Positions 6,818-45,675 of a stretch of 64,000 bases of DNA are shown here, in pieces. The stretch is from a virus (Duplodnaviria; Heunggongvirae; Uroviricota; Caudoviricetes). The translations under genes and the position numbers were made by a program. The stretch lies in IMG/VR virus record IMGVR_UViG_3300024348_000012. One strand, written 5' to 3'. Below the pieces are notes generated by a model that had not been told where the DNA came from, did no database searches, and saw nothing but the letters and a program-made list of their open reading frames with translations. Within the stretch, counting starts at the first letter, position 1, and every line of letters begins with the position of its first letter.

Positions 6818-7035
6818 TGGGATTTAATCATTGCTACCTAACAAATGTTAAAGACTTACAAAATCATTTAGATAATGTAAGTTTAGAAAAGTTTATTAAA
6901 ACCTATCGTAGTTATGATGCCTTAACCGGCCCAAGTGAATGTTTTGAATTTATTGAACAAAAAATTGAAGAGTATGAAAAAGTTATTAGTGATATTGATA
7001 TTGGGGATGTTGAGTTGCAAGAAGGAAATACCTAA
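6817..7035 (+). CDS. hypothetical small protein
   Basis: 72-aa ORF; its 3' end overlaps the next gene in another frame. Confidence 0.3.
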   Translation: MGFNHCYLTNVKDLQNHLDNVSLEKFIKTYRSYDALTGPSECFEFIEQKIEEYEKVISDIDIGDVELQEGNT

Positions 7036-8697: not shown

Positions 8698-8994
8698 ATG
8701 AAAGGAGAACCAATTATATTGCATATAGAATTAGGAAACGAATCAGTATCAAACTGGTTGTATCAAAATCAATATGTAATTTTTTCAGAACTAATCCGAT
8801 ATTCAAAAAAACTTATTAAAGAAAATTTAAATGCCATTCAAGCAATAATGGTATCTAATTCATCGGATAATATTGTATTCATTATTAAAAAAGATAATGT
8901 TAAATTGACATTGGATAAAGCTATGGATTATTTTCTAGAAATAGAAGAATATGAAAAATGTTCGGAAATAAGAGATTTATTAAATGAGTTATGA
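8698..8994 (+). CDS. hypothetical protein
   Basis: 98-aa ORF. Confidence 0.4.
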   Translation: MKGEPIILHIELGNESVSNWLYQNQYVIFSELIRYSKKLIKENLNAIQAIMVSNSSDNIVFIIKKDNVKLTLDKAMDYFLEIEEYEKCSEIRDLLNEL

Positions 8995-17444: not shown

Positions 17445-17476
17445 TTTGGCAAAGTGAAAAATTTGTCGTATATTTA
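17445..17476 (+). promoter_or_regulatory. conserved phage promoter box
   Basis: tttggcaaagtgaaaaatttgtcgtatattta; ends 5 nt before the UvdE ATG, so the transcript is likely leaderless or nearly so. Confidence 0.5.
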
Positions 17477-17480
17477 CTAT

Positions 17481-18368
17481 ATGAGTATAGGATATGCATG
17501 TATTAACCTTTCATTAGGTAAAAAGATTACAACGAATAGAACAATGGTTAAACGAACTTTCATAGCAAAGGGTATTGACTATGTATCGGATTTGGTATTG
17601 CAGAATGTTGCAGACCTCGAACGAATTATAGACTGGAACGAACAAAACGGAATTAAAATGTATCGTATGAGTAGTGAGATGTTTCCGTGGGCAACCGAAT
17701 ACGAATTTACTGAATTAAAAGATTGGAACGAAATACAAAAGATACTACAAAGATGTGGTGCAAAGGCAACAATGTATAAACAAAGATTATCATTTCACCC
17801 AGGACCTTTCAATGTATTAGTTTCACCAAAAGAAAATGTGGTATTGAATACGATTAAAGATTTGGAAGTGCATGGTAAAATAATGGACGCAATGGAATTA
17901 TCTAAAACACCTTACAATAAAATAAACATACATTGCAACGGAGTATATGGTGACAAGATTGCAGCAATGGATAGATTTATAACTAACTTTGACAAACTAT
18001 CTAATTCAGTAAAAAGTAGACTAACAATTGAGAACGATGACAAGGCTAGTATGTATTCAGTTAAAGACTTAATGTATATTCATAATAAGATTAACATACC
18101 TATTGTATTTGATTATCACCACCATACTTTTAACACAGGTGATTTGAGTGAACGAGATGCATTGAAGTTGGCAGTATCAACCTGGCCGAAAGGCATAACA
18201 CCGGCAGTTCATTATTCCGAAAGTAAAGCACTACATGAAAACAATACAAAAATTAAAGCCCAAGCACATTCCGATTATATTACAACCCTCCCCGATACAT
18301 ACGACATGGGTGTGGACATTATGGTTGAAGCAAAACAAAAAGATTTAGCAATATTAAAATTTATATAA
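17481..18368 (+). CDS. uvdE: UV-damage endonuclease (UvdE/UVDE family)
   Basis: N-terminal MSIGYACINLSL matches the UvdE start motif, then TIM-barrel-like length with His/Asp/Glu-rich motifs (HCNGVYGDK, DYHHHTFN). The track's 17454 GTG start lies inside the promoter box. Confidence 0.6.
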   Translation: MSIGYACINLSLGKKITTNRTMVKRTFIAKGIDYVSDLVLQNVADLERIIDWNEQNGIKMYRMSSEMFPWATEYEFTELKDWNEIQKILQRCGAKATMYKQRLSFHPGPFNVLVSPKENVVLNTIKDLEVHGKIMDAMELSKTPYNKINIHCNGVYGDKIAAMDRFITNFDKLSNSVKSRLTIENDDKASMYSVKDLMYIHNKINIPIVFDYHHHTFNTGDLSERDALKLAVSTWPKGITPAVHYSESKALHENNTKIKAQAHSDYITTLPDTYDMGVDIMVEAKQKDLAILKFI

Positions 18369-21336: not shown

Positions 21337-22029
21337 ATGAATACGTTTTTTACATATCCAATAGAAGTGAACGAAATCAAACCTATGAAGCAGTGTACTA
21401 CATGCAATGAAATCAAACCAATAGAGGAATATCATATGCACCCATCCTCAAAGGGGCATATAAGATGTGAATGTAAAGTATGTGTTAATAAAAAAAATAG
21501 AATTAAGTTACAAAAGATATATGATAACCCCGAACGATTAGAACGATATAAACAACAAAAGAGAAATCATTTTTTAAGGAATAAGGATAAAGCAGAGTTT
21601 AGAGTTAATCATGGTATAAGGAAATTAATTATAGCGGGATTTAAGAGGGCAGATAAGGGTAGAAAGGTTATAAGAAAAATGGATAAGACTGAAAGCATAT
21701 TAGGTTGTAGTGTAAATTTCTTTGTTGAATATATTAAGTCTCAATTAACAGACAATATGACAATGGAAAATTATGGTAGTGTATGGATATTAGGACACAT
21801 AGTTCCACAGGGATATTCATTAGATGATCCAGATAAAATAAATTTACTTAATCATTATCTAAATTATGCTCCACAAAATAAATTAGAGAATGGTGAATTG
21901 AATTGTAAAATATGGAAACAAAAGTTTACTGACTACCATGCAATGAAATATAAAACAATTATAGATGAATATAATTTGTATCAATCCAATAGATTAATTA
22001 GTGTATCAAACAATACTATATCAAAATAA
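21337..22029 (+). CDS. HNH-type (homing) endonuclease, putative
   Basis: N-terminal Cys cluster CTTCNEIKPIEEYHMHP...CECKVC plus C-terminal GHIVPQGYSLDDPDKINLLNHYLNYAPQNKLEN (H...N...N/H spacing of the HNH motif). Confidence 0.5.
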   Translation: MNTFFTYPIEVNEIKPMKQCTTCNEIKPIEEYHMHPSSKGHIRCECKVCVNKKNRIKLQKIYDNPERLERYKQQKRNHFLRNKDKAEFRVNHGIRKLIIAGFKRADKGRKVIRKMDKTESILGCSVNFFVEYIKSQLTDNMTMENYGSVWILGHIVPQGYSLDDPDKINLLNHYLNYAPQNKLENGELNCKIWKQKFTDYHAMKYKTIIDEYNLYQSNRLISVSNNTISK

Positions 22030-28767: not shown

Positions 28768-28799
28768 TTTGAAAATCTAAAATATTTATCGTATATTTA
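28768..28799 (+). promoter_or_regulatory. conserved phage promoter box
   Basis: tttgaaaatctaaaatatttatcgtatattta; about 70-nt leader to the 28870 gene. Confidence 0.45.
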
Positions 28800-28869: not shown

Positions 28870-30327
28870 ATGAAGGCAGTATTAATATCTACGGATTACA
28901 TTAAAACAGCAACGGGTGAATATAAGGTTTTAGAAATAAATACAAGTACAAGAATCGTAGCGGCCGATAATGAAGGAAATCTACCGGGATTAGACTGGTC
29001 AAATCTAACTACCTTTATCCAAACTAATGGATTTACAAATGTACATTGTATAATACCAATGTACGATAAAGGGTTTGCAACTAAATTAAGTGAAATATGT
29101 GATAACATTGGTGGAATTACATTTCTTTCACATGAAACAAGTGGTACTTCAATTACTGTTCCATATATTGAAGATAACGAAACTACTCTTATTTTGAGAG
29201 TTTCATATGATACTACTGCAATTGTTGATGATGAGTATTGTAGAGATAATTATTCTTTCTTAAGAGCAATTAATGAATTAACAACAAAACCAAAAACTTA
29301 CATACCAAACATATCCGACGATTTTGAAAATTTATCAGAATTTAACTATACATTAGATTTACCGAATTTTATTATTAAAAAACGATATCCAAATTATGAT
29401 AAAAATGAATTCCCTAAATTATATAAAGTACAAAATTTAACCGAACTAACACAATTAAAAGGGTTAGTTAATGTTAATACGGAATTTTTACAAGAATTTA
29501 CAAATTCAGAAATTCTATCAAACAAAAGAAGTATTATCAGAGGAATTGATATAATATATGGTTCTAATTTAGATGTAATTAGTATGGGTGGATATAAAGT
29601 ACTTCATGCAATCACAGAAAATATATGGAGTAACACATTTGGAGATTTAGGACTATTAGCTAAAAAAGATAGACCAAAATATATTACATATTACTCACCA
29701 ACATCCGATAGAGCTACATATATTTACGATGAAGACCAAGAAGTTTTAATGGCGGATGGTAGTAGAAAATCATTTGCGGAATTAGAAGTGGGTGATTCTG
29801 TAAAATCAATAAATATCCCATCATTACCAGTAAATGAGACCGAATATAAAGTGGAGGAGTGGACAGGTAGTCATACTGATTTCACTACAAATTTTGCAGT
29901 TAGTGAAACAGCTATTGTTGTAAAAACTACACAAACAACATCTGATTTATTTATTAGAATTACATTAGAAGATGATATTGTATGGGATGATTTACCCGTA
30001 ACCCACCTTCTTGTTAAGAATGATGATGTTATAAGATTTAAAAATGTTAACAATTTGCAAATTGGTGATGTATTAGAATTATTTAGTACGGAAACCGAAA
30101 CTATTGTAAATAAAACAATTACTAATTTAGAAATATTATTTAAAGAAAATGAAGTAGTTGGAACTATGGATGTTGAACCTTTAGATTTGTTCTTACCATT
30201 AGTAACAAACTCATTCGCTATCGTTCAACACAATGCATGTAATGCAAACTTTTGTTCAAGTTTCGGAGGACAATGTTACAATTATGGTAAATGTGGTGAT
30301 TGTGGATATTATCAATGTGCTAAATAA
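28870..30327 (+). CDS. Hint (intein/pretoxin-HINT-like) domain protein with C-terminal 30-aa six-Cys tail
   Basis: Residues about 292-455 show Hint blocks: N-terminal VLMADGSRKSFAELEVGDSV (the Cxx[DG]T...G...I.eL..GD.V pattern with Val at position 1), TGSHTDF, and C-terminal MDVEPLDLFLPLVTNSFAIVQHN (blocks F/G ending in HN). Followed by ACNANFCSSFGGQCYNYGKCGDCGYYQCAK. Confidence 0.5.
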   Translation: MKAVLISTDYIKTATGEYKVLEINTSTRIVAADNEGNLPGLDWSNLTTFIQTNGFTNVHCIIPMYDKGFATKLSEICDNIGGITFLSHETSGTSITVPYIEDNETTLILRVSYDTTAIVDDEYCRDNYSFLRAINELTTKPKTYIPNISDDFENLSEFNYTLDLPNFIIKKRYPNYDKNEFPKLYKVQNLTELTQLKGLVNVNTEFLQEFTNSEILSNKRSIIRGIDIIYGSNLDVISMGGYKVLHAITENIWSNTFGDLGLLAKKDRPKYITYYSPTSDRATYIYDEDQEVLMADGSRKSFAELEVGDSVKSINIPSLPVNETEYKVEEWTGSHTDFTTNFAVSETAIVVKTTQTTSDLFIRITLEDDIVWDDLPVTHLLVKNDDVIRFKNVNNLQIGDVLELFSTETETIVNKTITNLEILFKENEVVGTMDVEPLDLFLPLVTNSFAIVQHNACNANFCSSFGGQCYNYGKCGDCGYYQCAK

Positions 30328-30494
30328 AAAATATTAATTATGGAAATTATACAAAACGAAATCGTTGAATTAACAATTACAGAGAAATCAGAAATTGCAA
30401 CAATATTTCAAAATATTATAACAAATATAAAAACTGATATTACAAATCAGTAAAAATATTTGGTAATTCAATTTTTTTTTATTATATTAGTGTT

Positions 30495-30770
30495 ATGGGA
30501 TTTAATTTAAAAACTATATCACAATCTTGGTTTGATTCGTACTTTGGTACCGATTCTCAAAGGGAATTGGCTAAAGAAAGATTAGGCATATGTGAAACTT
30601 GTCCGTCAAAAAAAGAACTTTTTAAGAATCAAAATTGGTCAGTTGTATGTGGTGAATGTGGTTGCCCAATTAATAAAAAAATATTTTCTAAAAAAATAAA
30701 AGAATGTCCATTGGACAAATGGAAAGAAGTTGATTCTAATTCTATTATTTTCTCAAAAAAAGTTATATGA
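30495..30770 (+). CDS. Cys-rich zinc-ribbon-like small protein
   Basis: CETCPS...CGECGCP...KECP. Confidence 0.45.
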   Translation: MGFNLKTISQSWFDSYFGTDSQRELAKERLGICETCPSKKELFKNQNWSVVCGECGCPINKKIFSKKIKECPLDKWKEVDSNSIIFSKKVI

Positions 30771-31264
30771 TAGAATCCATATATGGTTTTTTAAATGATG
30801 TGGAATTGAGTTTAGTAGATACATTTTGTTTAAATTTTAAACAAGAAGATAATCCACGTCCCACTAATTATTACAATAGAATGTTTCTAAATAAAGAAAC
30901 AGATTTAATTGATTATCAAAATAAAATAAAGAACCACTTATTCCAAAAATATGGTATTACATATGAAGTAGAAGGTATTTGGATAAATAAAGTAACACCA
31001 GATACAAATAAAGATGACGAATTTCATTTAGATAATAATGCGTTAACAATCGTTACTTATATAAATGATAATTTTATAGGAGGGGAATTTGAATATTTTA
31101 TATTAGGAATTAAACCAAATCAAAAAATAAATCCAAAAAGAAATTTAAGTTTAATTACAAACGATAAATTACCACATAGAGTATTGCCTGTAATTACAGG
31201 AGAAAGATATTCAATTGTGGTTTTTTGTGTTATACCAAATAAAGATAAAAAAACAATGTTATGA
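30767..31264 (+). CDS. 2OG-Fe(II) oxygenase, prolyl-4-hydroxylase-like
   Basis: HLD (HxD), GGEFEYF, second His PHRVLPV, and GERYSIVVF (the 2OG-binding Arg-x-Ser). Confidence 0.6.
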   Translation: MIESIYGFLNDVELSLVDTFCLNFKQEDNPRPTNYYNRMFLNKETDLIDYQNKIKNHLFQKYGITYEVEGIWINKVTPDTNKDDEFHLDNNALTIVTYINDNFIGGEFEYFILGIKPNQKINPKRNLSLITNDKLPHRVLPVITGERYSIVVFCVIPNKDKKTML

Positions 31265-31875
31265 TAAAGATTAATATCAACAATGAAATTGATATATATA
31301 AAACTACATTAGATTTTAATTCAAATTTTGATAAAAATTTATTTATTGATAAATTAAAAATTGTTGATACATTAGTAGATGCGTCCCTTCCAGCTAAAAA
31401 AACACCAGGTAGACAAGCCGCTTTATCTGAAATGTATATGCCTGAATTAAATTTTATAAAAGATAATATATCTAATTTATTATCAACGGAATTTAATGTT
31501 AGTAATAATTTTATTATGAAAACATGGGTTTATTATAGTGATAGTGATAATGGTTATAGTGGATACCACACACACGAAACATTGCACCCAAGGCCAACAA
31601 CGGCCGTTGGTAAGGTAAAAACGAATTATACATTTACATATTACCTACAAATGCCAAATAATCTTAAAAATGATGAAGGAAAGTTATTTTTAAAAACGAA
31701 ATCTGGATTTGAATTTGGTATATTACCAGAAGAAGATGATGTTTTTATATTCCCGGCCGACCTAGAACATAGACCTGAAACCAATCCCAATTCAACTAAA
31801 TCCAGAATTGTTATTGCCGGTAACACTGCTTTTTTTGATGAACATTTGAGAAAAACAGAAAAAAGCGTTTTATAA
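31261..31875 (+). CDS. hypothetical protein (possible cupin/oxygenase-like)
   Basis: His-rich motifs YHTHETLHP ... DLEHRPE ... RIVIAGN; weak. Confidence 0.35.
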   Translation: MIKININNEIDIYKTTLDFNSNFDKNLFIDKLKIVDTLVDASLPAKKTPGRQAALSEMYMPELNFIKDNISNLLSTEFNVSNNFIMKTWVYYSDSDNGYSGYHTHETLHPRPTTAVGKVKTNYTFTYYLQMPNNLKNDEGKLFLKTKSGFEFGILPEEDDVFIFPADLEHRPETNPNSTKSRIVIAGNTAFFDEHLRKTEKSVL

Positions 31876-33075
31876 ATGAATATCGTTATTGTAGGAGGAG
31901 GAACTGCCGGATGGATTACTTCTTTATTTTTACTTTCAGAATATAAAAATAGTAATATCACAGTTATTGAAAGTGATGTTATTGGTATATTGGGTGCAGG
32001 AGAAGGCTCAACACCACTAATGAAAAAATTCTTAAAGAAATGCAATATTGATGAAAACGATTTCATTAACAAAACGAAATCTACTTTTAAATTGGGTATT
32101 GATTTTGAAAATTGGAATGTTTGCAACAAATCGTATAAACATCCATTTATAAATGATTCCAAAGCATATCATTTTGATGCAAGACTAATTGCAGAATATT
32201 TTAAACAAATATCAATTAATAGAGGTGTAACTCACATAAATGGAATTGTAAAATCTTTTGTTCAAAATGATAAAAAAGATATTACCAATTTGGTATTATC
32301 GGATGATACAACAATACCAACTGATTTTGTATTTGATTGTTCAGGATTTCATAGATTACTAATCGGGAAATTATATAATTCAAATTGGGTTTCGTATTCA
32401 AATCATTTAAAAGTAAATACGGCCGTTCCATTTTTCTTAGATAGAACGGATACTAATATGGAATTGGATACCAAAGCAATTGCGATGGATTATGGTTGGA
32501 TGTGGCAAATTCCATTACAACATAGATGGGGATGTGGGTATGTATTTGATGGTAATAGAATAAACGAAATACAGGCCAAAGAAGAAATTGAATTAAAATT
32601 AAATAGAAAAATACAATCACCAAAGACATTAAAATTTTCAGCAGGTTATTATGATAATGTGTGGGTTAATAATTGTATTGCTATGGGATTAGCTAGTGGG
32701 TTTTTAGAACCATTGGAAGCAGTATCAATCCACATTACACTTATGGAATTGAATTTAATTAAAAACCATTTATTTAAAGATAACGATACTAATATAGTTA
32801 ATGAAAAATTTTCACAAATAATGGATGAACATTTTTTATTTATATATTATCATTATTTGTGTAATAAAAAAGATACAGAATTTTGGTCAGATTATAATTT
32901 GATTAGTGCACCATTGGAGTTACACAAATTTGTTAAAAAAGATTTAAACATATCGTTTAGTTCCGATGAGGATTATATTTCTAAATTCAAATATAATGAT
33001 GTTGTACAATATACACACTACGATTGGAAACTTATAAATGATGGAATTTTTGGTTTAAATAAATCTTTATTATGA
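31876..33075 (+). CDS. flavin-dependent halogenase (tryptophan-halogenase family)
   Basis: MNIVIVGGGTAGWITS (FAD GxGxxG), ITVIES...ILGAGEGST, the signature YGWMWQIPL (WxWxIP), and AMGLASGFLEPLEAVSIHI (the halogenase GxxSGFxEPLES block). Confidence 0.8.
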   Translation: MNIVIVGGGTAGWITSLFLLSEYKNSNITVIESDVIGILGAGEGSTPLMKKFLKKCNIDENDFINKTKSTFKLGIDFENWNVCNKSYKHPFINDSKAYHFDARLIAEYFKQISINRGVTHINGIVKSFVQNDKKDITNLVLSDDTTIPTDFVFDCSGFHRLLIGKLYNSNWVSYSNHLKVNTAVPFFLDRTDTNMELDTKAIAMDYGWMWQIPLQHRWGCGYVFDGNRINEIQAKEEIELKLNRKIQSPKTLKFSAGYYDNVWVNNCIAMGLASGFLEPLEAVSIHITLMELNLIKNHLFKDNDTNIVNEKFSQIMDEHFLFIYYHYLCNKKDTEFWSDYNLISAPLELHKFVKKDLNISFSSDEDYISKFKYNDVVQYTHYDWKLINDGIFGLNKSLL

Positions 33076-33440
33076 TTGAAACAATAAACATAAATACCAA
33101 ATTATATGTCAAATATATTGATAATATAAAAGGATTTGGTGTATTTGCAAATCATATAATTAAAAAAGACGAAATTATTGAAGATTGTTATTCTTTATTA
33201 ATTCATAATACAAATTCGGATTACGAACCTTATTATTTTTATTTTAAAGGTGACACTAAATTATTACCATTAGGATTTGGTTCTATTTATAACCATAACA
33301 ATAATCCAAATATAGCTTGGAAAATCGTAGATGATAATCGTAAAATAATTAGATTTTATGCAATAACCGACATCAATATCAATGAGGAATTGTGTCATAA
33401 TTACGGCCCTAATTATTGGAAAAATAAAAATATATTATAA
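33072..33440 (+). CDS. SET-domain protein methyltransferase
   Basis: GFGVFANHIIKKDEIIEDC...IYNHNNNPNIAW...NEELCHNYGPNYW (SET N-region, NHxCxPN-like and ELxxxYG post-SET-like motifs); about 120 aa as in viral vSET. Confidence 0.55.
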   Translation: MIETININTKLYVKYIDNIKGFGVFANHIIKKDEIIEDCYSLLIHNTNSDYEPYYFYFKGDTKLLPLGFGSIYNHNNNPNIAWKIVDDNRKIIRFYAITDININEELCHNYGPNYWKNKNIL

Positions 33441-34123
33441 TGAATACACTTTGGACATTTGGTGATAGTTTTACATTTGGTCATGGTTGTAGAGAAGATT
33501 GTAATTCATATACCGTAGATGATTATTATGGTTACAAAAAAGAAGGAGATGACATCTGGCCCAACCATTTAGGTAATTTGTTAAATTGTAAGGTTAGTAA
33601 TTTAGGAAAAAACGGAGTATCAAATGATTATATTTTAGATGCAATAATAGATAATTTTGATTTTATAAAAGAAAATGATTATATTATAATAGGAAAAACA
33701 TTCCATGGTAGAATTGAAGTACCTTTTAATAATAAAATTTATAAATCCTTTGCACATTATGAGGGTGGTAAGATAGATGAAAATACTAATAGTAAAGATA
33801 TATGGATAAAAAATGAATTTAAAGATTTAAACAAAGAAGTGATAGAAACAATTATTAATTTTCAATATTATTTTTCAAATGAATTATTTTATAAAGAACG
33901 AAATAATAAAAGATTTGAATTTATTAAGAATAGATTGCATAATGAAAAAAATGTAAAGTTTTCTTATATATGGGGAATAGAAGAAGATAAAAATTTTTAT
34001 CACACATTTCAACAAATAATACAGGCAACTAATGGCAAAGTAATTGATACACATTTTTCTTTTAAAGGTCACTTAGATTTTGCACATTTTATTTATAATA
34101 AAATTAATACCAAAATAATATGA
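33440..34123 (+). CDS. SGNH/GDSL-family hydrolase
   Basis: N-terminal TFGDSFTFGHG (GDSx block I), conserved Gly/Asn blocks and a distal DxxH-like motif. Confidence 0.55.
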   Translation: MNTLWTFGDSFTFGHGCREDCNSYTVDDYYGYKKEGDDIWPNHLGNLLNCKVSNLGKNGVSNDYILDAIIDNFDFIKENDYIIIGKTFHGRIEVPFNNKIYKSFAHYEGGKIDENTNSKDIWIKNEFKDLNKEVIETIINFQYYFSNELFYKERNNKRFEFIKNRLHNEKNVKFSYIWGIEEDKNFYHTFQQIIQATNGKVIDTHFSFKGHLDFAHFIYNKINTKII

Positions 34124-34665
34124 TTAAAAAAAAATTGGGGTTTACAACATATTGTTATGATGAATTTATAACAATAGAAGAACAATCTGAAATTAAAAAA
34201 TGGGCATTAGATAATGAAAATAAAATGCCACCGAATATGTCTGGCCCGTATAGAAGATTTAGTAGATTGGATAGTTTTAATAATATACCGAATATAATAC
34301 ATACTATAAAACAAAGAGTTATAGATGTTGAAAATATAAAAAATGTAATGGAAGCACCACAAAATGCCGATTGGGTAGGTATTCAATGGGAAAATGCCTT
34401 TGTTGAACCACATTTAGATGACAATGGCAACAATAAAAATTATTATACCAGACGATATAATATACTAGTATCATATCCTGAAGAAGGAGGCCAACCTATA
34501 TATGGTAATGAAATTTTAGAAGTTAAAGAAAGAATGATGTGGAGATGTGATGCGGGTTTAATTGAACATTCTAGTATACCAAATAAAGGAAAAATACCTA
34601 GAATTAATTTGTCTTTTGGATTTTTAATGCCAATAAAAACTACAACTAAAAAATCTTTATTATGA
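34120..34665 (+). CDS. 2OG-Fe(II) oxygenase, P4H-like
   Basis: EPHLDD (HxD), GGQPIY, IEHSS (distal His), RINLSF. Confidence 0.55.
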   Translation: MIKKKLGFTTYCYDEFITIEEQSEIKKWALDNENKMPPNMSGPYRRFSRLDSFNNIPNIIHTIKQRVIDVENIKNVMEAPQNADWVGIQWENAFVEPHLDDNGNNKNYYTRRYNILVSYPEEGGQPIYGNEILEVKERMMWRCDAGLIEHSSIPNKGKIPRINLSFGFLMPIKTTTKKSLL

Positions 34666-35222
34666 TATATCAACAAAAAATATTTACAAAAGAGGAATGT
34701 CAAACCATAATAGAGTACCATAAAAAATATACCGACTTGGAAGGTTGGTTTCCCTCAAAATACATTGACGGCCAACGAATAAAAGATAACCACAATCTAA
34801 TGGCATATGAAGTATATAATATACTTAACAATGCAGAAACAAATTGGTTTTTTGTAAAATTATTTAATTGGTTTAGTGAAGTTAGCGGAATTAAAATTGA
34901 TGAAACTAATAAGTTACCAAAATGTACCTTACACAGATATACCATTGGTGACCATTTTGCAAAACATATAGATTTAATGAAGGGATACGAAGAAAGAAGA
35001 TATAATTCAGGCATACAACTGAATGATGAATACGATGGTGGTGAATATGTGACTTGGGATGCGCTGGGTAAGGAAATATTAATATCAAAAGAACCTGGCA
35101 CAGCTGTAGCGTACAGTTCTACAGTTGAACATGAAATAAAAGAAATAACAAAAGGAGAGAGATGGTCTATTGTGATGCCCATAACAAAATACAATATAAT
35201 TGAAAAGAAAAGTTTTATATAA
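34662..35222 (+). CDS. 2OG-Fe(II) oxygenase, P4H-like
   Basis: KHIDLMK (HxD), YDGGEYVTW, VEHEIK, GERWSIVMP. Confidence 0.6.
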   Translation: MIYQQKIFTKEECQTIIEYHKKYTDLEGWFPSKYIDGQRIKDNHNLMAYEVYNILNNAETNWFFVKLFNWFSEVSGIKIDETNKLPKCTLHRYTIGDHFAKHIDLMKGYEERRYNSGIQLNDEYDGGEYVTWDALGKEILISKEPGTAVAYSSTVEHEIKEITKGERWSIVMPITKYNIIEKKSFI

Positions 35223-35893
35223 TGTCAATATTAATTAAAAATGATATAATATGGGTTTCAATTCCAAAATGTGCATCAATGTCAATAGAGGATGCGTTGT
35301 TGAATTCTAAGTTGGACATAGAGAGACATTCCTATGCAATTAAAAGTGAACCACTACATACACACATTGGTATCCGTAAATTAAAAGAAGAATTTGGTGA
35401 TAAAAAAACTATATGTATAAAAAGAGATTGGTTTGAAAAGTGGGTAAGTGCCATTCAGTTTTGTTTTGAAACCATAATACCAACCGATGGAAATCTACCA
35501 ATCAAAAAATGGGAAGATATTGATAATGATTTTATTTATTCAATATTTACGGATGAATTTATAAATTTATTATATTCCGAAAAAACGGATTCATTAAATG
35601 AGTGTTATAGTAGATTGATTGTAAATGGAAAAGTAACAGAAACAAATAGATTGTCCGTACTATTTTCCCAAAATTATTGGAAAGAGGATAACAAATGTGA
35701 TTATGAATTTGACATAAAAGATATGGATAAATTTGTTTCTTTCATAGAACAAAAATATGGGGAAAAATTAATAATTCGTAAAATAAATGAAAATCCAAAA
35801 ACAAAAAGTAAATTAGTTTTAAATGATGAACTAAAAGAGTTTATTTGGCAAAAGTTTGAAAAAAGATTTTCTAAAAAAAGTTATTTATTATAA
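35222..35893 (+). CDS. sulfotransferase-like protein (putative)
   Basis: N-terminal IIWVSIPKCASMSIEDAL resembles the PAPS 5'-phosphosulfate-binding loop (PKxGxT) of Sulfotransfer_2-type enzymes; weak. Confidence 0.35.
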   Translation: MSILIKNDIIWVSIPKCASMSIEDALLNSKLDIERHSYAIKSEPLHTHIGIRKLKEEFGDKKTICIKRDWFEKWVSAIQFCFETIIPTDGNLPIKKWEDIDNDFIYSIFTDEFINLLYSEKTDSLNECYSRLIVNGKVTETNRLSVLFSQNYWKEDNKCDYEFDIKDMDKFVSFIEQKYGEKLIIRKINENPKTKSKLVLNDELKEFIWQKFEKRFSKKSYLL

Positions 35894-36384
35894 TGTTTAC
35901 TAAAGAAGAATGTGAAAGAATAATTTATTTAGCTCAGTCATCTTTAGTGGATTCTAAATTATATTTTAAATATGATGATAATATAAAATATAAAGTATCT
36001 AATATCAAAAAAGATGAAACTACGGATTGGATATTTGATAAAATGCTTGTATTTTTTACAAACAGAACTGGTATTAAAATAAAAAAATCATTGAATATTT
36101 TACATGTTCACAATTATAAAACAGGAGATTATTTTAAAAAACATAGAGATGATTTACACCCAACACAAATACACAATATAGGTGTTTGTTTAAATGATGA
36201 TTATGTAGGTGGTGAATTTATTTTATATGAACCATATGAAATATTACCAAAAAAACAAGGTGAGATATATACATTTGAAAGTTTAAGATTACATGAAGTT
36301 AAAAAAATAGAAAGTGGTGAAAGATGGAGTATAATTGCATTTTTACATAATGAAAATTTAGAACTAAAAAAAACACTATTATGA
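35893..36384 (+). CDS. 2OG-Fe(II) oxygenase, P4H-like
   Basis: KKHRDDLHP (HxD), YVGGEFILYEP, LRLHEVKKIESGERWSIIAF. Confidence 0.6.
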   Translation: MFTKEECERIIYLAQSSLVDSKLYFKYDDNIKYKVSNIKKDETTDWIFDKMLVFFTNRTGIKIKKSLNILHVHNYKTGDYFKKHRDDLHPTQIHNIGVCLNDDYVGGEFILYEPYEILPKKQGEIYTFESLRLHEVKKIESGERWSIIAFLHNENLELKKTLL

Positions 36385-36914
36385 AAATCGGTATAACTGG
36401 ACACTCTAAAGGATTGGGAGAAGCAATTTATAATAAATTAAATAAAATGAATGAAGTTATTGGATTTAGTAGAACAAATGGATACGATATTCAATCACCA
36501 AATAATATAATAGAAAAATTAGAAAATTGTGATATTTTTATAAATAATGTGTATTATGAAACCCATCAATCTAATTTATTTTTTAAATTATTTCAAAAAT
36601 GGAACGATTTAGAAAAAACGATAATTAATATAAATAGTAGTTCTATACATCAATCGGGCGCATGGAATCCTTTATATGTTGCAAACAAAAAACATTTAAA
36701 AGATATTACACAATCTCTAATTGATAAATACCCACAGAAAAAATGTAGAATTATTAATTTAAATTTGGGTACATTAGATACACATAAAAACTTTGAAACT
36801 TTTAATAAAATCGAAGTATCTAAAGTTGCGGAAGTAGTGGAATGGTGTATAAATCAACCACATGGTATTGAAATACAAGAATTAACAATATTACCAACAA
36901 CACAACTAAAATAG
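36381..36914 (+). CDS. short-chain dehydrogenase/reductase-like NAD(P)-binding protein
   Basis: MKIGITGHSKGLGEAIYNKL (TGxxxGxG Rossmann motif); short (177 aa). Confidence 0.45.
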   Translation: MKIGITGHSKGLGEAIYNKLNKMNEVIGFSRTNGYDIQSPNNIIEKLENCDIFINNVYYETHQSNLFFKLFQKWNDLEKTIININSSSIHQSGAWNPLYVANKKHLKDITQSLIDKYPQKKCRIINLNLGTLDTHKNFETFNKIEVSKVAEVVEWCINQPHGIEIQELTILPTTQLK

Positions 36915-36943
36915 ATGTTATTGACACTTGAAAAAATAATAAT

Positions 36944-37762
36944 ATGAAAATTTTAAAATATTGGAAGCCTGACGGGTTTGAAATTTCCTCTTACAAATAC
37001 TCATTAAAAGAAAAAGCAAATCAAATACATACAACGTGTGGTGAAGATAATACTAATCTATGTACCTACACCTACAATGAATTAGGATTTAGGGGTGACA
37101 GTATAAAAAAAGAAGGGTTTAAGGTAATGTCATTAGGTTGTTCAATTACCGAAGGGGTTGGTGTAAATGATAATGAAACGTGGACATCTCAATTCACAAA
37201 TTTAGTACCAAATTCAGTAAATTTAAATTTTGGTGTTTGTGGTAGAAGTAATGATTTTATAGTAAGGTGTTTGTTAAGTTACTATGATTTAATTAAACCA
37301 GATTTGGTATTAATTATGTATACATACTCAACTAGAAAAGAAATATATACAAATGATGGGGGAGTTGAACCATATATGGCAACATCTGCATGGGGATATA
37401 TGCAAGAAACTGAAGATGGTAGACTTATTCAAAAAAATTTACTTGAAATACAAAACGATAATGAAGATTTTATAAATTGGTATAAAAATCATCAATTGAT
37501 AAAATTATTTTTAGAATCTAAAAAGTGTAATTTTATTTGGAATGGTAGTTTGATTCGTTCTAATTATAAAGATGAATTTAGATATGATGGTGATTTTTTC
37601 TTAAATGTATTAGATAAAGGAGTGGATAATAAACATGCAGGCCCAAAACACCTTAAAAATTATGCAACAAAGTTATACGACCATATCAATAATAATTTTC
37701 CTCATTTTTTATTAAATGATAAAACTAAATTAAATATTAAAAATAGTAATAAATTAATATAA
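36944..37762 (+). CDS. SGNH-hydrolase-like protein (putative)
   Basis: FKVMSLGCSITEGVGVN resembles SGNH block I (GDS replaced by GCS); distal His near C-terminus. Confidence 0.4.
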   Translation: MKILKYWKPDGFEISSYKYSLKEKANQIHTTCGEDNTNLCTYTYNELGFRGDSIKKEGFKVMSLGCSITEGVGVNDNETWTSQFTNLVPNSVNLNFGVCGRSNDFIVRCLLSYYDLIKPDLVLIMYTYSTRKEIYTNDGGVEPYMATSAWGYMQETEDGRLIQKNLLEIQNDNEDFINWYKNHQLIKLFLESKKCNFIWNGSLIRSNYKDEFRYDGDFFLNVLDKGVDNKHAGPKHLKNYATKLYDHINNNFPHFLLNDKTKLNIKNSNKLI

Positions 37763-38323
37763 ATGGTAATTACAATCCTTGCAGAACCAAGAAGTGGTTC
37801 AACTAATTTAGCTAATTGGTTTTATTTTAATAAAGACTTTACAATATTATATGAACCAATTACCAGTCCAAAATGGAAATGGTATAAGCATGGTGTATCA
37901 CCAAAATTATGGGAATATAACACTTCTCATTTATTAGTTAAAGAAATTTTTAGACCAGAAACAGATTTTTCTGAATTAATAGAAATATCTGATAAGGTAA
38001 TTATTTTATATAGAGAAAATATAATTGAACAAACCGAATCTTGGTTAAATGCTAATAAAACAAATAATTGGGATAAAGCATGGGTATTTAAAGAAAATTT
38101 AATAAAAAATGAGGATGCATCATATTTTAATCAAATAAAATCCGGATTAAAAGAAAATTATTTGAATAAAGATTATTTTAATATATCATACGAAGAATTA
38201 TATTATAATAATGGTTTTGAAAAAATATTAAATTATTTAAATATAGACGAATTAGAAAATAAAAACTTTCCTTACGGAGAGAAATATAGAATAAATGTTA
38301 ATAAACCAAATACCTTAATATAA
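37763..38323 (+). CDS. sulfotransferase (Stf0/Sulfotransfer_3-like)
   Basis: MVITILAEPRSGSTNLANWF matches the PAPS-binding PRSGST(T/L)L 5'-PSB loop; size about 190 aa, typical of Stf0-type. Confidence 0.5.
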   Translation: MVITILAEPRSGSTNLANWFYFNKDFTILYEPITSPKWKWYKHGVSPKLWEYNTSHLLVKEIFRPETDFSELIEISDKVIILYRENIIEQTESWLNANKTNNWDKAWVFKENLIKNEDASYFNQIKSGLKENYLNKDYFNISYEELYYNNGFEKILNYLNIDELENKNFPYGEKYRINVNKPNTLI

Positions 38324-38384: not shown

Positions 38385-39032
38385 ATGAAACAAAAGACAG
38401 AACAAGAATTGAAAGCAAATTATGACCGATTTATAGGTATAATTAAGAAGTATTTTAAAGGAGAAAGATTGGAGAAATTACTCCATATGTATTCCGAAGA
38501 AGAATTGGGTGTAAATTTAACCCTATCACCGGCGTCCGGCTCAAAACACTATCATAATGGGTATATAGGTGGGTATATTGACCACATCTTTAATGTATGT
38601 AAGAACGCTCTTAAAATGAGAGACCTGTTCGTAATGCAAGGTGGAGAGATTGATTTCACCGAAGAAGAATTGATATTTAGTTGTCTACATCACGACTTAG
38701 GAAAGTTGGGTATTAAAGGTGAATTACATTACCTACCAAACCAAGAAGAATGGTCTCAAAAGAAATACGGAACTTTATTTGTTCGTAATGAGAAGATACC
38801 TTATATGACTTTAACCGATAGAACTTTCTTTACACTAAACGACTATGGTATTACTTATAATGAGAAAGAGTATTTTGCAATCAAACTTACTGATGGTATG
38901 TATGACGAAGATAATCAAAAGTATTTAGCAGGTCACGACTTAAAGAAACAATTAGTTTATAAGTTACAATTTATTATGCATTGGGCAGACCATATGTCTA
39001 CAATCATTGAAAGACAAGATAACGTAATTTAA
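38385..39032 (+). CDS. HD-domain phosphohydrolase
   Basis: HYHNGYIGGYIDHIF ... LHHDLGKLG (H...HD...D metal-binding motifs). Confidence 0.65.
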   Translation: MKQKTEQELKANYDRFIGIIKKYFKGERLEKLLHMYSEEELGVNLTLSPASGSKHYHNGYIGGYIDHIFNVCKNALKMRDLFVMQGGEIDFTEEELIFSCLHHDLGKLGIKGELHYLPNQEEWSQKKYGTLFVRNEKIPYMTLTDRTFFTLNDYGITYNEKEYFAIKLTDGMYDEDNQKYLAGHDLKKQLVYKLQFIMHWADHMSTIIERQDNVI

Positions 39033-39152: not shown

Positions 39153-39530
39153 ATGTACATGATTGATTACAGTAAGTTATTTGAAGAGTTCTTTAATGAA
39201 CCAAAAACAACAACTTATGTTCCAAACAAATTCGCAGTAGACATTAAAGACGAAGTCGCGAGTATTGCACTATCAGTATTAGGACACAACCCAGAGGATA
39301 TTGAAATTAATTGCTTTGAGGACAAGATTGAAATTAAAGCTAAAAAAACACAAGAGGATAAAGAAAGTCCTTTTAATCAATTGGTTTCGGATATTGAAGA
39401 AAGAATCCAAGTAGGCAAAAACTTTGATGGTAAAAAAGCAAAAGCTGAGATTAAAAATGGAATTCTCTTAATTACACTTGAAAGAAAAGAAGAGTCCAAA
39501 CCAAAAAAATTAACCCCAAAATTAGGTTAA
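39153..39530 (+). CDS. small heat-shock protein (Hsp20/alpha-crystallin domain)
   Basis: AVDIKDEVASIALSVLGHNPEDIEINCFEDKIEIKAK ... AKAEIKNGILLITLERK (the ACD AxxxNGVLxIxxPK-like end). Confidence 0.55.
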   Translation: MYMIDYSKLFEEFFNEPKTTTYVPNKFAVDIKDEVASIALSVLGHNPEDIEINCFEDKIEIKAKKTQEDKESPFNQLVSDIEERIQVGKNFDGKKAKAEIKNGILLITLERKEESKPKKLTPKLG

Positions 39531-39555
39531 TTCAGTTATTTTTTGTATATTACAA

Positions 39556-39586
39556 AGGTAGAAGAGTCATTACTTCTACCTTTTTT
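39556..39586 (+). terminator. rho-independent terminator
   Basis: GGTAGAAG-agtcatta-CTTCTACC followed by TTTTTTT. Confidence 0.6.
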
Positions 39587-41595: not shown

Positions 41596-42243
41596 ATGAA
41601 ATTAATAGTTGATAAGGGTTCTAACGGACTAACAACAAAAGAGTTTGTGGAGTATCTAAAAACTCCTGTATTAAAGTCAGAAATTACACAGCAAGAAGCT
41701 GATGAGTTAAGAAAACAATTAGAACAAGGATTAAGTGAATATCCAGGTTTAGGCATTTCAGCAACTCAATTAGGAATTAAAAAGAGAGCTTGTTATATTA
41801 AATTTGGAGAAGAAGAAGATATTACAGAATTATTTTTGTTAAATCCAATTATTAAAGAAAAATCTAAAGAAGGGTTTCTTTTTATGGAAGGGTGTTTATC
41901 AATTCCATCTTCACTTACAAAACCAACTAGAACTATTAGAGCTTGTAAAGTCGTAGTTGATACTGATAACTTGGGTGAACTAACATTTGAAATTAATCCA
42001 GAAGGTGACAAAGCAAATGAATCAATATCAAAAGAAACAATGATGACCGTTATAGTTCAACATGAAATTGACCATTTAGACGGATTTACAATTAAAGATA
42101 GAGTTTACAATACTCAGGTGGTGAAAAAAGTAGATTTTGGTAGAAATGAAAAAATTGTAATGAAATCAAAAGAAGGTGAGATGGTTGAAGTTAAATTCAA
42201 AAATGCAAACAAATTATTTTTACAAGGATACGAAATCGTTTAA
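41596..42243 (+). CDS. def: peptide deformylase
   Basis: All three PDF motifs are present: GLGISATQLG (GxGxAAxQ), MEGCLSIP (EGCLS) and VQHEIDHLDG (QHExDHLxG). Confidence 0.8.
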   Translation: MKLIVDKGSNGLTTKEFVEYLKTPVLKSEITQQEADELRKQLEQGLSEYPGLGISATQLGIKKRACYIKFGEEEDITELFLLNPIIKEKSKEGFLFMEGCLSIPSSLTKPTRTIRACKVVVDTDNLGELTFEINPEGDKANESISKETMMTVIVQHEIDHLDGFTIKDRVYNTQVVKKVDFGRNEKIVMKSKEGEMVEVKFKNANKLFLQGYEIV

Positions 42244-43201: not shown

Positions 43202-44899
43202 ATGATACAATTAGGTTTATCCGCATTTTACCACGATTCAGCAGCAGCTCTGGTTATAGATGGTAAAGTTATATGTGCAATTGAAGAAGAAAAACTATCC
43301 GGTGAAAAGCATGATAGTTCTTTTCCGTTTAAGGCAATTCAATGGTGTTTGGAATACACAAAGATAACAATTGATGAAGTTGATATGGTTTGTTGGTATG
43401 AAAATCCAAATGATAAATTTGAAAGAGTTAGAGAAACGATTGGTAAGTGGGGTGGATTAAGATTTCCAATGAAATGGAGACAATTCTTAAAAAGATGGAA
43501 TCAATCGGAAGGTAATTTAAAAGGAATATTAAAATCAATTGGATATGATGGAGAAATTTTATATTCATTACACCACCATTCACATTTAGCACTATCTTAC
43601 TACACATCACCATTTGATAAAGCAATAGGTTTATCAATTGATGGAGTTGGTGAATCGCATACGATATATGCAGCAATGTGTGATGAGTTGGGTTTTCATA
43701 AAATACAAACATTACACTTTCCTCATTCGTTGGGATTGATTTATTCAGCATTTACTGCTTATTTAGGATTTAAACCAAACGAAGGTGAGTATAAAGTAAT
43801 GGGACTTGCTCCATATGGTGATAATCAAAAATATAATAACATATTTGATAAAGTTGTTACTACCGGTGGTGAAATAGACATTGTAAAGATGGATATGTCT
43901 TACTTTACATGGCATACATCGGATAACGATATGTTTAATGATAAGTTAATTAATTTAATTGGATTCCCTCCACGTTTTAAAGATGAACCAATTGAACAAC
44001 ATCATAAAGACTTAGCTGCTTCATTACAAAGGTGGTATGAAAGTGCATTATACTTTATTATCAATAGAATTACAAATACTTGGGAATGTGAGAATTTAGT
44101 ATTAGGTGGTGGTTGTGCATATAATGGAACTGCTAATGGTAAAATTAAACAATTCACTGCAATTAAAAATGTATTCATTCCATTTGCTCCATCAGATAGT
44201 GGTTCTGCAATTGGTGCATGTTTATATCATTATCATCAAACATTTGGTAATCCCAAAGTAAAAGGTGGGGATAACCAATCACCATATTTGGGTGAGGAGT
44301 GGAGTAGTCCTGAATTACTTAAAATTATATTACAAAATCATAGAAGTAAGGTTGTAATGTATGATACCGATGATGTATTATGTAAAGAAGTTGCAAAGTT
44401 AATCAATGAAGGTAATATTGTAGGATGGTTTCAAGGTAGAACTGAATTTGGTGCAAGAGCATTGGGTAATCGTTCTATATTAGGTAATCCACATTTGTCC
44501 GACATTAGAGATAGAATTAATAAGGTTGTCAAAAAGAGAGAAATGTTTAGACCATTTGCTCCATCGGTTACACATGAAGATTATCAAAAGTATTTCCTGT
44601 CAGAAGAAGATGTTCCTTATATGAATCAGGTTGTCAAAGTTAAAAAGGATGTAAACATTCCGTCAGTAACGCATGTTGACAATTCTGCAAGGATACAGAC
44701 ACTTAAAAGAGAGGATAACCCACTTTACTATGACTTATTAAAGGAGTTTGAGAAACTAACAGGAACACCCATTCTATTGAATACATCGTTTAACTTAAAA
44801 GACCACACAATGACAAATGACCCACAAAAAGCAATTTGGACATTTCATAATTGTGACATGGATTATTTAGTATTAGGTAAATTTTTAATCAGCAAATAA
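43202..44899 (+). CDS. carbamoyltransferase (NodU/CmcH/TobZ family)
   Basis: N-terminal MIQLGLSAFYHDSAAALVIDGKVICAIEEEKLSGEKHDSSFP matches the Carbam_trans_N signature; 565 aa as expected; His-rich metal site HHHSH. Confidence 0.8.
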   Translation: MIQLGLSAFYHDSAAALVIDGKVICAIEEEKLSGEKHDSSFPFKAIQWCLEYTKITIDEVDMVCWYENPNDKFERVRETIGKWGGLRFPMKWRQFLKRWNQSEGNLKGILKSIGYDGEILYSLHHHSHLALSYYTSPFDKAIGLSIDGVGESHTIYAAMCDELGFHKIQTLHFPHSLGLIYSAFTAYLGFKPNEGEYKVMGLAPYGDNQKYNNIFDKVVTTGGEIDIVKMDMSYFTWHTSDNDMFNDKLINLIGFPPRFKDEPIEQHHKDLAASLQRWYESALYFIINRITNTWECENLVLGGGCAYNGTANGKIKQFTAIKNVFIPFAPSDSGSAIGACLYHYHQTFGNPKVKGGDNQSPYLGEEWSSPELLKIILQNHRSKVVMYDTDDVLCKEVAKLINEGNIVGWFQGRTEFGARALGNRSILGNPHLSDIRDRINKVVKKREMFRPFAPSVTHEDYQKYFLSEEDVPYMNQVVKVKKDVNIPSVTHVDNSARIQTLKREDNPLYYDLLKEFEKLTGTPILLNTSFNLKDHTMTNDPQKAIWTFHNCDMDYLVLGKFLISK

Positions 44900-45675
44900 T
44901 GAAACTACACGCATTTGGAGATAGTTGGACAGAAGGAGAAGGAACCAACTGGCCGATAGAACAATCATTTAAAGACAGAAAACAATTACAACTATTTAGA
45001 AATGAAAGTAGTTGGGTAAACACTCTTGCCAATAAATTAGGATTAGAACCTGTAAATAATGGATGGAGTGGTAAAGCAAATAATGTTATTTTTAATGAGG
45101 TTATAAATGATTTAAGAAATGGTAAAATTCATAAAGATGATTTTGTTGTTATCATGTGGAGTTCATCGTTAAGAGATTATGTTCCATTTTTACCAAAAGG
45201 TGAATGGATAAGTTGGGGACAAATGGAATTAGCAGCCTTGCCACATAAGTTTACAGAATCATACACATATGGAGATGAAAAGTTTAATAATTTTTTGGCT
45301 GAGTATAAAAAATTCTTTTTAGGAAATTTATTTACACAAAATTATTATAACATAATAAATCAAAACTATATAATTTATTTACAACATATGTTAAATGAAT
45401 ATGGTGTAAAATATATTATGTGTGATGCATTTGATTTAATGATTCAAAATTTGGATAAAAAGGATGATAACACTTATTTAATTAATAAATCAACATATTG
45501 GGGGTTTGCAAACGAATCTTTGGAATTATGGTTAATGAAAAACTTTAAAGGTGAAGATGTTTGGGAAAAGAAAATTCCAAACCCAATGAAAGTTGCACAA
45601 CACCCCAACGAAGCTGGATACCAACTGATAAGTCAGGAACTTTATAATTATATAGTAAAGAACAACATAATATAA
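44899..45675 (+). CDS. SGNH/GDSL-family hydrolase
   Basis: MKLHAFGDSWTEGEG (block I GDSx), internal Gly/Asn blocks, C-terminal QHPNEAG (DxxH-like region). Confidence 0.55.
   Translation: MKLHAFGDSWTEGEGTNWPIEQSFKDRKQLQLFRNESSWVNTLANKLGLEPVNNGWSGKANNVIFNEVINDLRNGKIHKDDFVVIMWSSSLRDYVPFLPKGEWISWGQMELAALPHKFTESYTYGDEKFNNFLAEYKKFFLGNLFTQNYYNIINQNYIIYLQHMLNEYGVKYIMCDAFDLMIQNLDKKDDNTYLINKSTYWGFANESLELWLMKNFKGEDVWEKKIPNPMKVAQHPNEAGYQLISQELYNYIVKNNII

Follow-up and report, generated by a model that had tools for sequence, protein, structure and literature searches.

Multi-copy 2-oxoglutarate (2OG) oxygenases and halogenases, for which no substrate has been apparent, have puzzled students of marine phages since about 2005-2010. 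Enzymes of the same kinds are encoded in a 64,000-nucleotide stretch of DNA (the window; IMG/VR record IMGVR_UViG_3300024348_000012) whose source is a tailed phage. A co-directional block of genes at positions 28870-38323 of its + strand opens with the gene for a 485-amino acid (aa) protein that carries a Hint domain and a cysteine-rich tail, and continues with genes for oxygenases, a halogenase, sulfotransferases and other predicted enzymes. What do these enzymes modify, and could the tail encoded beside them be their substrate? The block may represent a self-releasing peptide, resembling a peptide made by the ribosome and then modified post-translationally (RiPP), encoded together with tailoring enzymes that bear a common C-terminal motif. 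We hold this answer tentatively, at just short of an even chance.

A Hint protein with a cysteine-rich tail

The product of the first gene (28870-30327, + strand) consists of three parts. The N-terminal domain (28870-29700; aa 1 to ~277) is ATP-grasp-like and apparently circularly permuted. It is followed by the Hint domain (29716-30234; aa ~283-455), which ends in an invariant His454-Asn455, and by a six-Cys tail of 30 aa, ACNANFCSSFGGQCYNYGKCGDCGYYQCAK, encoded together with the stop codon at 30235-30327 and proposed to be a released core peptide. An earlier reading of the DNA (the initial annotation) had described a Hint-domain protein with a six-Cys tail; the tail was real and aa ~283-455 had the Hint fold, but the Pfam Hint matches (0.014 and 0.037) were below threshold. 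The ATP-grasp-like domain had been overlooked, as had an open reading frame (ORF) at 30340-30453 and the C-terminal motif shared by the enzymes. When the profiles of this Hint domain (Hint1) and of the second Hint found in some relatives (Hint2) were compared with hhalign, an internal pseudo-repeat was aligned and no residue-by-residue correspondence was obtained.

In 56 homologs with 33-83% identity, H454, N455, C457, C462, C469, C475 and C478 were invariant, as were M1-K2 and many charged residues of the N-terminal domain. The Hint domain had no N-terminal Cys/Ser nucleophile; in our mapping from alignments, its position 1 falls on Y284, which is invariant, or on residue 285, which varies. 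Block B read T-L-E-D in the window and T-L-x-D across the alignment, so that the conserved His of TxxH was absent, and the acidic residues of block F were retained and invariant across homologs. The residue at +1 after the Asn was variable (A, G, V, P, S or other), with a Cys at +2. A Hint domain with neither the N-terminal nucleophile nor the block B His, but with His-Asn at its end, is predicted to catalyze C-terminal cleavage only, via Asn cyclisation. A true intein was considered and rejected because there was no +1 nucleophile and no Cys1, and the domain was present in every full-length homolog.

No match to the N-terminal domain was found among Pfam, NCBIfam and PDB sequence profiles; a PDB profile search with the whole protein and with this domain returned only noise, and no structural analogue of the whole 485-aa protein was found in BFVD. 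The invariant residues of the domain (E22-x-N24, K170, Q208-E209 and R224) resemble what we take to be the nucleotide/Mg motifs of ATP-grasp enzymes in permuted order, and their invariance suggests a permuted but active site.

A word-indexed search recovered 463 homologs, all unnamed and all metagenomic, and an exhaustive profile search with the N-terminal domain gave 366 cluster representatives at 50% identity. The Hint protein had no tblastn match in cultured phages (50,697 phage records), indicating that it has no annotated relative. A scan limited by the search patterns used covered 185,579 prokaryote species, with a single genome per species, and found no relatives. The family was thus found solely on viral and metagenomic contigs.

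The N-terminal domain and Hint1 were constant across the family, and the C-terminus was polymorphic. Among 127 full-length representatives, to which the next counts refer, His-Asn was found by pattern search in 120 and not in the other 7. The protein ended in a Cys-rich tail alone in 67. In six, the Cys-rich segment was followed by a canonical Hint (Cys1, TxxH, VHN); the second Hint of family members matched Pfam Intein_splicing (1e-7) and PT-HINT (8.5e-6). In another eight it was followed by a ~70-residue module with the pattern K|SDxxxKxNI...AQEL...VDY. Peptidase_S74 was the top Pfam match of this module (E 0.012 and 0.043) and the sole match in one of the two sequences tested; the match began at the cleavage Ser and scored below curated thresholds. 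The best PDB match of the module profile was 3gud, the GA-1 neck-appendage chaperone (E 0.0076, aligned from 3gud residue 1). The S74-like members (L022, L072, L075, L079 and P0143-P0177) had Cys-rich segments of up to ~90 aa with 10-14 Cys. Members P0227, P0228, P0255 and P0240 and those of loci L089-L098 carried Hint1 followed directly by one to three further canonical Hints, had no Cys-rich segment and ended in ..VHNK(K); no locus of the four-domain variant of the P0227 type was found in IMG/VR.

The tails themselves had a distinct composition. The 217 unique tails had a mean length of 34 aa and contained 18.7% Cys, compared with 0.5% in the body of the protein; they were enriched in Gly, Pro, Trp and Tyr and had few acidic and aliphatic residues. 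The number of Cys was even (6, 8, 10 or 12) in 212 of them. The tail of the window's protein was disordered in the structure model (pLDDT <50). The even Cys numbers, the hypervariable residues between the Cys and the self-cleaving modules on both sides of the segment favor a released disulfide-forming peptide over a fixed metal site. Judged from sequence, the tail looks like a releasable core peptide because the His-Asn is invariant, the Cys number is nearly always even, and a second self-cleaving domain is found in relatives.

Linkage to the enzyme genes and a shared C-terminal motif

About 90 loci were compared: 80 from IMG/VR, and those of six relatives that an exact-protein look-up had yielded. 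In all of them the Hint gene was embedded in the enzyme gene set. Presence was counted in 35 non-redundant loci that extended for 7 kb or more to either side. Of these, 34 encoded 2OG oxygenases (median 4 copies, up to 8), 31 a Zn-ribbon protein (Zn91), 29 the sulfotransferase ST2 and 28 the sulfotransferase-like ST1. A 37-45-aa ORF (s37) was present in 24 loci and a GDSL-like protein in 20; halogenase and radical S-adenosylmethionine (SAM) enzymes were each found in 18, and a SET protein in 11. These counts support the initial annotation in treating the Hint gene and the enzymes as one conserved module. The window's gene order was kept in near relatives. Distant relatives (30-35% identity) had the order two oxygenases, halogenase, two oxygenases, ST1, Zn91, Hint, s37, SGNH, oxygenase, ST2 and radical SAM. 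Three kinds of flank were seen (adenosine 5'-phosphosulfate (APS) kinase with w41004; w27382 with w28248; HD with HSP20), and this difference between loci indicates that the set moves as a unit.

Additional enzymes in relatives included a B12-radical SAM enzyme, arrays of SPASM radical SAM enzymes and an Asp/Asn beta-hydroxylase. Four to five radical SAM/SPASM genes lay a few kb upstream of the Hint gene in L005 (1-6608), L023, L031, L034 and L037; no radical SAM genes were found in the corresponding upstream part of the window. The radical SAM/SPASM arrays of relatives adjoined carbamoyltransferase and APS kinase genes. In one relative on a 172-kb contig (L007), the flanking genes were 63-88% identical to those of the window and the Hint protein only 34%; compared with the backbone, the Hint gene and its island change much faster, by evolution or by exchange. 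The island of this relative held about 5 genes, compared with 15 in the window.

Nearly all module proteins, from at least ten unrelated families, ended in K/N-x-S/T-L/I-L/I (e.g., KKTLL, EKSLI, NKSLL and PNTLI). Counted over unique sequences, the motif was present in 44/47 and 107/120 proteins of the oxygenase families OGa and OGd, 32/36 halogenases, 63/65 ST1, 66/66 ST2, 23/24 radical SAM enzymes and 59/69 Zn91 proteins, and flanking families scored 0-4. Within the window it was carried by 12 of the 13 ORFs of 30495-38323 and by only 5 of the 74 other + strand ORFs. Products of 8991-10079 and 44899-45675 also ended in it. We rejected the explanation that the motif is a by-product of translational coupling through ATGA or TAATG, because it was equally frequent before gaps longer than 15 nt (193/229) and at overlaps (244/269) and was encoded by many different codons. 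In the ST2 model it was disordered. Phages HTVC008M and P-SSM2, which have no Hint protein, did not have the motif on their 2OG, PhyH and halogenase proteins. We read the motif as a putative common docking, sorting or turnover signal.

All ORFs of the block in the initial annotation were found in place on the + strand, and most of its enzyme assignments were supported. Zn91 (30495-30770), a 91-aa Cys-rich protein with the C-terminal motif, was Zn-ribbon-like (phrog_13558, 6.4e-9). The three genes at 30767-31264 (PF13640, E 1.9e-6; C-terminus KKTML), 34662-35222 (2e-11; KKSFI) and 35893-36384 (2.1e-9; KKTLL) had been called oxygenases of the prolyl 4-hydroxylase (P4H) type, and each product passed the curated cut-off of the 2OG-Fe(II) oxygenase family profile. 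The product of 31261-31875, taken earlier for a His-rich cupin, was instead another 2OG-Fe(II) oxygenase (phrog_81 1e-12 and, weakly, Pfam 5e-3; EKSVL). A further P4H-like call, 34120-34665 (KKSLL), had the HxD...H...R motif but no family match, and aligned weakly with a local 2OG profile (hhalign E 4e-4, probability 34%); it is a probable 2OG-Fe(II) oxygenase.

The flavin-dependent halogenase (31876-33075, 399 aa; C-terminus NKSLL) matched Trp_halogenase PF04820 with 1e-91, as expected from its earlier placement in the tryptophan-halogenase family, and had PDB matches down to 8e-57 (8.6e-38 to VirX1, 6qgm). All catalytic motifs were readable: GGGTAG (GxGxxG), GWMWQIP (WxWxIP), STFKLG with the catalytic Lys, and FLEPLE. 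However, the protein is about 110-150 aa shorter than solved Trp halogenases (497-554 aa), and the PDB matches skipped ~60 residues after residue 40 and ended early. The enzyme lacks the Trp-binding insert and the C-terminal substrate module of free-Trp halogenases, indicating that free tryptophan is probably not its substrate.

The SET-domain methyltransferase (33072-33440; C-terminus NKNIL) was likewise verified (PF00856, 2.9e-13, above cut-off). Both SGNH hydrolase calls stood in part. The 33440-34123 product (NTKII) had the FGDS motif but no direct family match; its relatives, as labelled by local jackhmmer searches, matched Lipase_GDSL PF00657 (4.4e-6) and DUF6071. The conserved 272-aa product of 36944-37762 (SNKLI), 65-76% identical in relatives, was only weakly SGNH-like (GDSL_2, 0.011). 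ST1 (35222-35893; KSYLL) kept its sulfotransferase-like label through a PHROG match (phrog_3347 Gal-3-O-sulfotransferase, 9.4e-6) that spanned the N-terminal 90 residues, but had no Pfam match. The short-chain dehydrogenase/reductase (SDR; 36381-36914, 177 aa) was confirmed by adh_short (4e-8) and NCBIfam SDR matches and did not carry the C-terminal motif. ST2 (37763-38323, 186 aa) was a minimal sulfotransferase, as had been proposed, with the sulfotransferase fold and a loop like the 5'-phosphosulfate-binding loop.

The earlier description of the block as translationally coupled agreed with six 4-nt ATGA overlaps (30767, 31261, 33072, 34120, 34662 and 36381), three 1-nt TAATG overlaps (33440, 35222 and 35893) and two direct abutments (31876 and 37763); the gaps were limited to 12, 41, 29 and 61 nt. 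No terminator-like hairpin was found inside the block, and the first strong one, which is also the only one of the region, was located at 39554-39583, 3' of the HSP20 gene. The promoter box assigned to 28768 exists as TTGAAA-17-TATATT (28769-28797, + strand; 10/12 matches) upstream of the first gene, but it is weak evidence because such sites were not enriched over shuffles (85 found, 94.9 expected). The 37-aa ORF s37, MEIIQNEIVELTITEKSEIATIFQNIITNIKTDITNQ (30340-30453, + strand), starts 12 nt after the Hint gene. It was 54-70% identical in relatives and had a 45-48-aa form in distant ones. s37 was also considered as a candidate for the true precursor, but neither Cys nor any modification-prone pattern occurs in it.

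The window is AT-rich (GC ~0.29) and its + strand holds nearly all long ORFs. GC was 0.25-0.27 in the block (30001-38000) and 0.29-0.32 in the flanks. No tRNA genes were found in the whole 64 kb, and megablast of the block against the 50,697 phage records gave no nucleotide match. A gp6-type baseplate wedge protein was encoded at 49269-51293 (phrog_219, 9.7e-24); proteins with 38-41% identity to it are encoded by Microcystis phage Mel-JY01, by Flavobacterium 'immuto' phages and by an uncultured phage of 484 kb. Metagenomic contigs of 125-339 kb bore close relatives of the block. Downstream of the block, genes for an HD-like phosphohydrolase (38385-39032) and HSP20 (39153-39530) were followed by those for a peptide deformylase (41596-42243; PF01327, 1.3e-21) and a Nol-like carbamoyltransferase (43202-44899). 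Directly after the latter lay a GDSL-like/DUF6071 protein gene (44899-45675; Lipase_GDSL 8.5e-6) whose product ends in ..KNNII and may be a detached module member. Upstream, the window encoded an FG-GAP repeat protein (6935-8218; PF13517, 5.9e-24) in a region otherwise free of annotation, an endonuclease (17454-18368; phrog_8420, 9.5e-59) and an HNH/endonuclease VII-like protein (21337-22029). A 314-aa gene of L007 carries PF03851 UvdE.

The tail as a candidate substrate

If the block is a peptide-tailoring system, its operation could be envisaged as follows. The 485-aa product would join a carboxylate-amine ligase-like ATP-grasp-like domain, a Hint domain and the six-Cys tail of 30 residues. 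The Hint domain would perform no N-terminal acyl shift but, with its block F acidic residues and terminal His-Asn, would allow Asn455 to cyclise and cut the chain after this residue, freeing the tail with a new N-terminus. The products of the downstream co-directional coupled genes (the 2OG hydroxylases, the truncated, open-site flavin halogenase, SET, the two sulfotransferases, the SDR and the two SGNH-like proteins) would then modify the peptide, either still tethered or already released, and probably further targets as well. In their flexible K-x-S/T-L/I-L/I endings they would share one docking or recruitment peptide, and the even-numbered Cys would oxidise to disulfides upon cell lysis. 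The final product might act as a toxin, a signal or a host-manipulating peptide.

The linkage of the genes and the releasable-looking tail agree with the initial annotation, which had proposed tailoring of a small disulfide-rich peptide; its likening of the system to conotoxins, with specific Tyr sulfation and Pro/Lys hydroxylation, is conjectural. Halogenase genes and tail Trp also tended to occur together: a tail Trp was present in 16 loci and absent in 2 when the halogenase was encoded, compared with 7 and 10 when it was not (Fisher p 0.0045, not corrected for phylogeny).

Several observations weigh against this interpretation, beginning with the lack of phylogenetic correction in that test. 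Its two exceptions, with a halogenase but no tail Trp, are the window and its nearest relative; the window's tail has neither Trp nor Pro despite the halogenase and the P4H-type oxygenases. Further Hint domain(s) directly after Hint1, with no Cys-rich segment, were found in 31/127 family representatives, and a short non-Cys tail in 8/127. The sampled Cys-less tandem-Hint loci keep tagged 2OG oxygenases, SET, SDR, radical SAM and a 36944-like protein, indicating another or additional substrate, so that the tail is not the sole one. A search for separate small Cys-rich ORFs, covering the window and the loci of Cys-less variants, found none. For a peptide of 30 residues, thirteen enzymes are a large number, and the junction, with its variable +1 residue and Cys at +2, is non-canonical. 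Carbamoyltransferase, APS kinase and glycosyltransferase genes adjoin the module in relatives, and decoration of glycans or virion proteins fits such neighbors equally well. Finally, the cleavage and the modifications are predicted from sequence and models.

These points lead to the main alternative, which we consider rather unlikely: the enzymes would decorate a different target, such as a small molecule, proteins of the virion, or glycans of the host or phage, and the block would resemble cyanomyovirus islands. The ATP-grasp-Hint protein would then be a conserved neighbor or a scaffold, or would itself make the real substrate (e.g., a ligase-built peptide). This would explain why the Cys-less tandem-Hint variants retain tagged 2OG, SET, SDR and radical SAM neighbors, and it suits the genes adjoining the relatives' module, which encode carbamoyltransferase, APS kinase, NTP-transferase and large glycosyltransferase/methyltransferase proteins. 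Two ST2 homologs are named NodH-like lipopolysaccharide sulfotransferase by JGI. Cyanophages and a pelagiphage carry 2OG/PhyH and halogenase genes with no Hint protein, and collagen-like or tail-collar proteins and secondary metabolites were proposed as substrates by Iyer et al. 2010 (PMC2938197). However, the Hint gene lay within the enzyme set in every sampled locus despite rearrangement, the Kyanoviridae enzymes do not have the C-terminal motif, and no collagen-like or other obvious substrate gene was present in the block. Co-variation with the Cys-rich tail was seen for Zn91, s37, ST1, ST2 and the halogenase; the Cys-less tandem-Hint loci had none of these five and no GDSL-like protein.

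The protein could also be a ligation or tagging device, which we regard as improbable. A covalent bond would join the Cys-rich segment, or else the ATP-grasp-Hint body, to a target, or the peptide would be cyclised head to tail; possible routes are a thioester made by a downstream Hint, as in Hedgehog cholesterol transfer and in conjugation by the ciliate BIL-ubiquitin-like-BIL (BUBL) proteins, or an acyl-phosphate made by the ATP-grasp-like domain. Consistent with ligation, the carboxylate-amine ligase-like domain is fused in cis, nearly every architecture has a Lys as its last residue or a few residues from it (..PPAKL, ..CAK, ..VHNK), and the tandem-Hint variants have only the body itself to release. 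By contrast, the window's protein has no second Hint, there is no identifiable target, and a Cys at +2 rather than +1 disfavors cyclisation of the native chemical ligation type; the argument for ligation is drawn from architecture. Still less probable, in our view, is a dead, domesticated structural Hint in an ATP-grasp enzyme with some unrelated role, the tail remaining attached to the enzyme as a Zn or Fe-S knuckle. Such a domain would be expected to have lost its N-terminal nucleophile and the His of block B, the CxxC pair and the four to five invariant Cys are reminiscent of zinc knuckles, conditions in the cytoplasm are reducing, and some members have the His-Asn but almost no tail. Yet the His-Asn at the very C-terminus of the Hint does not vary across 33-83% identity, the positions separating the Cys are hypervariable, sets of 6, 8, 10 or 12 Cys and tails of up to ~120 aa are unlike one metal site, and self-cleaving domains follow the segment in relatives.

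The self-released, enzyme-tailored peptide remains the interpretation we prefer. A more far-reaching version of it, which we consider doubtful, is a ribosomal natural-product pathway found only in viruses: a 455-residue ATP-grasp-Hint leader would use Asn cyclisation to cut itself off a hypervariable, disulfide-rich core, a dozen unrelated tailoring enzymes would dock via their C-terminal motif, and large aquatic phages would release decorated knottin- or conotoxin-like peptides, as a diversifying repertoire, at lysis. In such a pathway the second Hint or S74-like domain that flanks the core in some lineages would allow a C-terminal thioester, conjugation or cyclisation.

Known systems and significance

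The enzyme repertoire is not new in kind, because tandem dioxygenase/halogenase sets were described in 2010. The statement in the initial annotation that no described phage system has this combination was wrong for the enzymes: tandem dioxygenase and halogenase neighborhoods in cyanophages were described by Iyer et al. 2010 (PMC2938197), cyanomyovirus dioxygenase/halogenase islands also by Sullivan et al. 2010 (PMC3037559), and a viral (cyanophage) halogenase, VirX1, has been characterised, as cited in PMC10452541. Bacterial neighborhoods with 2OG, halogenase, sulfotransferase and 3'-phosphoadenosine-5'-phosphosulfate (PAPS) synthetase genes have been assigned to peptide or secondary-metabolite modification with no substrate named (PMC2938197). 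The islands of cyanomyoviruses Syn9, P-SSM2 and S-PM2 and of pelagiphage HTVC008M likewise place several unrelated 2OG oxygenases and a flavin halogenase in tandem, within accessory regions of large myoviruses from marine or fresh water, and the window's block has the same tandem of unrelated 2OG oxygenases and halogenase in a myovirus accessory region; its halogenase was 31-36% identical to those of the cyanomyoviruses and HTVC008M. The role predicted for those islands is also peptide or secondary-metabolite modification. However, a candidate substrate gene was not identified there, and they have neither a homolog of the ATP-grasp-Hint-Cys-tail protein nor the K-x-S/T-L/I-L/I C-terminus. The block adds SET, two sulfotransferases, an SDR, SGNH-like proteins and the Zn-ribbon, and the set is fixed around one gene.

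The Hint protein shares a plan with PT-HINT polymorphic toxins, in which a conserved N-terminal part and a Hint precede a polymorphic C-terminal module thought to be released by the Hint, with a small gene directly after; PT-HINT (PF07591) matches the second Hint of family members. In contrast to those toxins, the cargo here is a 20-120-aa Cys-rich peptide rather than an enzymatic toxin domain, the N-terminal part is ATP-grasp-like rather than a secretion or trafficking domain, the family is found on viral and metagenomic contigs, and the small downstream ORF has no shown immunity role. In BUBL and Hedgehog proteins a Hint is used for cleavage or transfer and not for splicing, as proposed here, and the long family variants flank a small cargo with two Hints as BUBL does. 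The window's protein differs in having one Hint, no thioester-forming Cys and a Cys-rich cargo unrelated to ubiquitin. RiPP clusters (graspetides/microviridins with their ATP-grasp enzymes, Cys-rich peptides modified by radical SAM enzymes such as SCIFF/ranthipeptides, and conopeptide-like sets) similarly have a hypervariable Cys-rich core with a conserved N-terminal part, clustered tailoring enzymes (radical SAM/SPASM in the relatives) and built-in removal of the N-terminal part. Here, however, the 'leader' is a 455-residue two-domain protein whose removal is predicted to be autocatalytic via the Hint; there is no RiPP recognition element, protease or exporter, and the N-terminal domain matches no graspetide ligase by sequence. 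As to the C-terminal intramolecular S74 chaperone of phage tail spikes and fibres (endosialidase, GA-1 neck appendage), about 10 family members end in the K|SDxxxKxNI...AQEL...VDY module, aligned from the cleavage Ser of 3gud. Unlike in S74 fibres and spikes, it follows a Cys-rich segment and not a trimeric fibre, and it is absent from the window's protein.

The ATP-grasp-Hint-Cys-peptide protein, its fixed association with the enzymes and the shared C-terminal motif appear to be new; a literature search on these three subjects found nothing. In this module the enzyme kinds long known from marine phages are locked to one gene with a candidate substrate and a built-in release mechanism, and the question of what they modify becomes testable. 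If the tail is indeed released and modified, freeing a ribosomal peptide by means of a Hint domain would be a novel route, and phages, with 366 clusters at 50% identity, would offer an extensive and unexploited supply of disulfide-rich modified peptides. The common C-terminal motif would represent a novel signal for recruiting enzymes. Should the substrate prove to be something other than the tail, the ATP-grasp-Hint family and this motif would nonetheless be previously undescribed features that are widespread in large aquatic phages.

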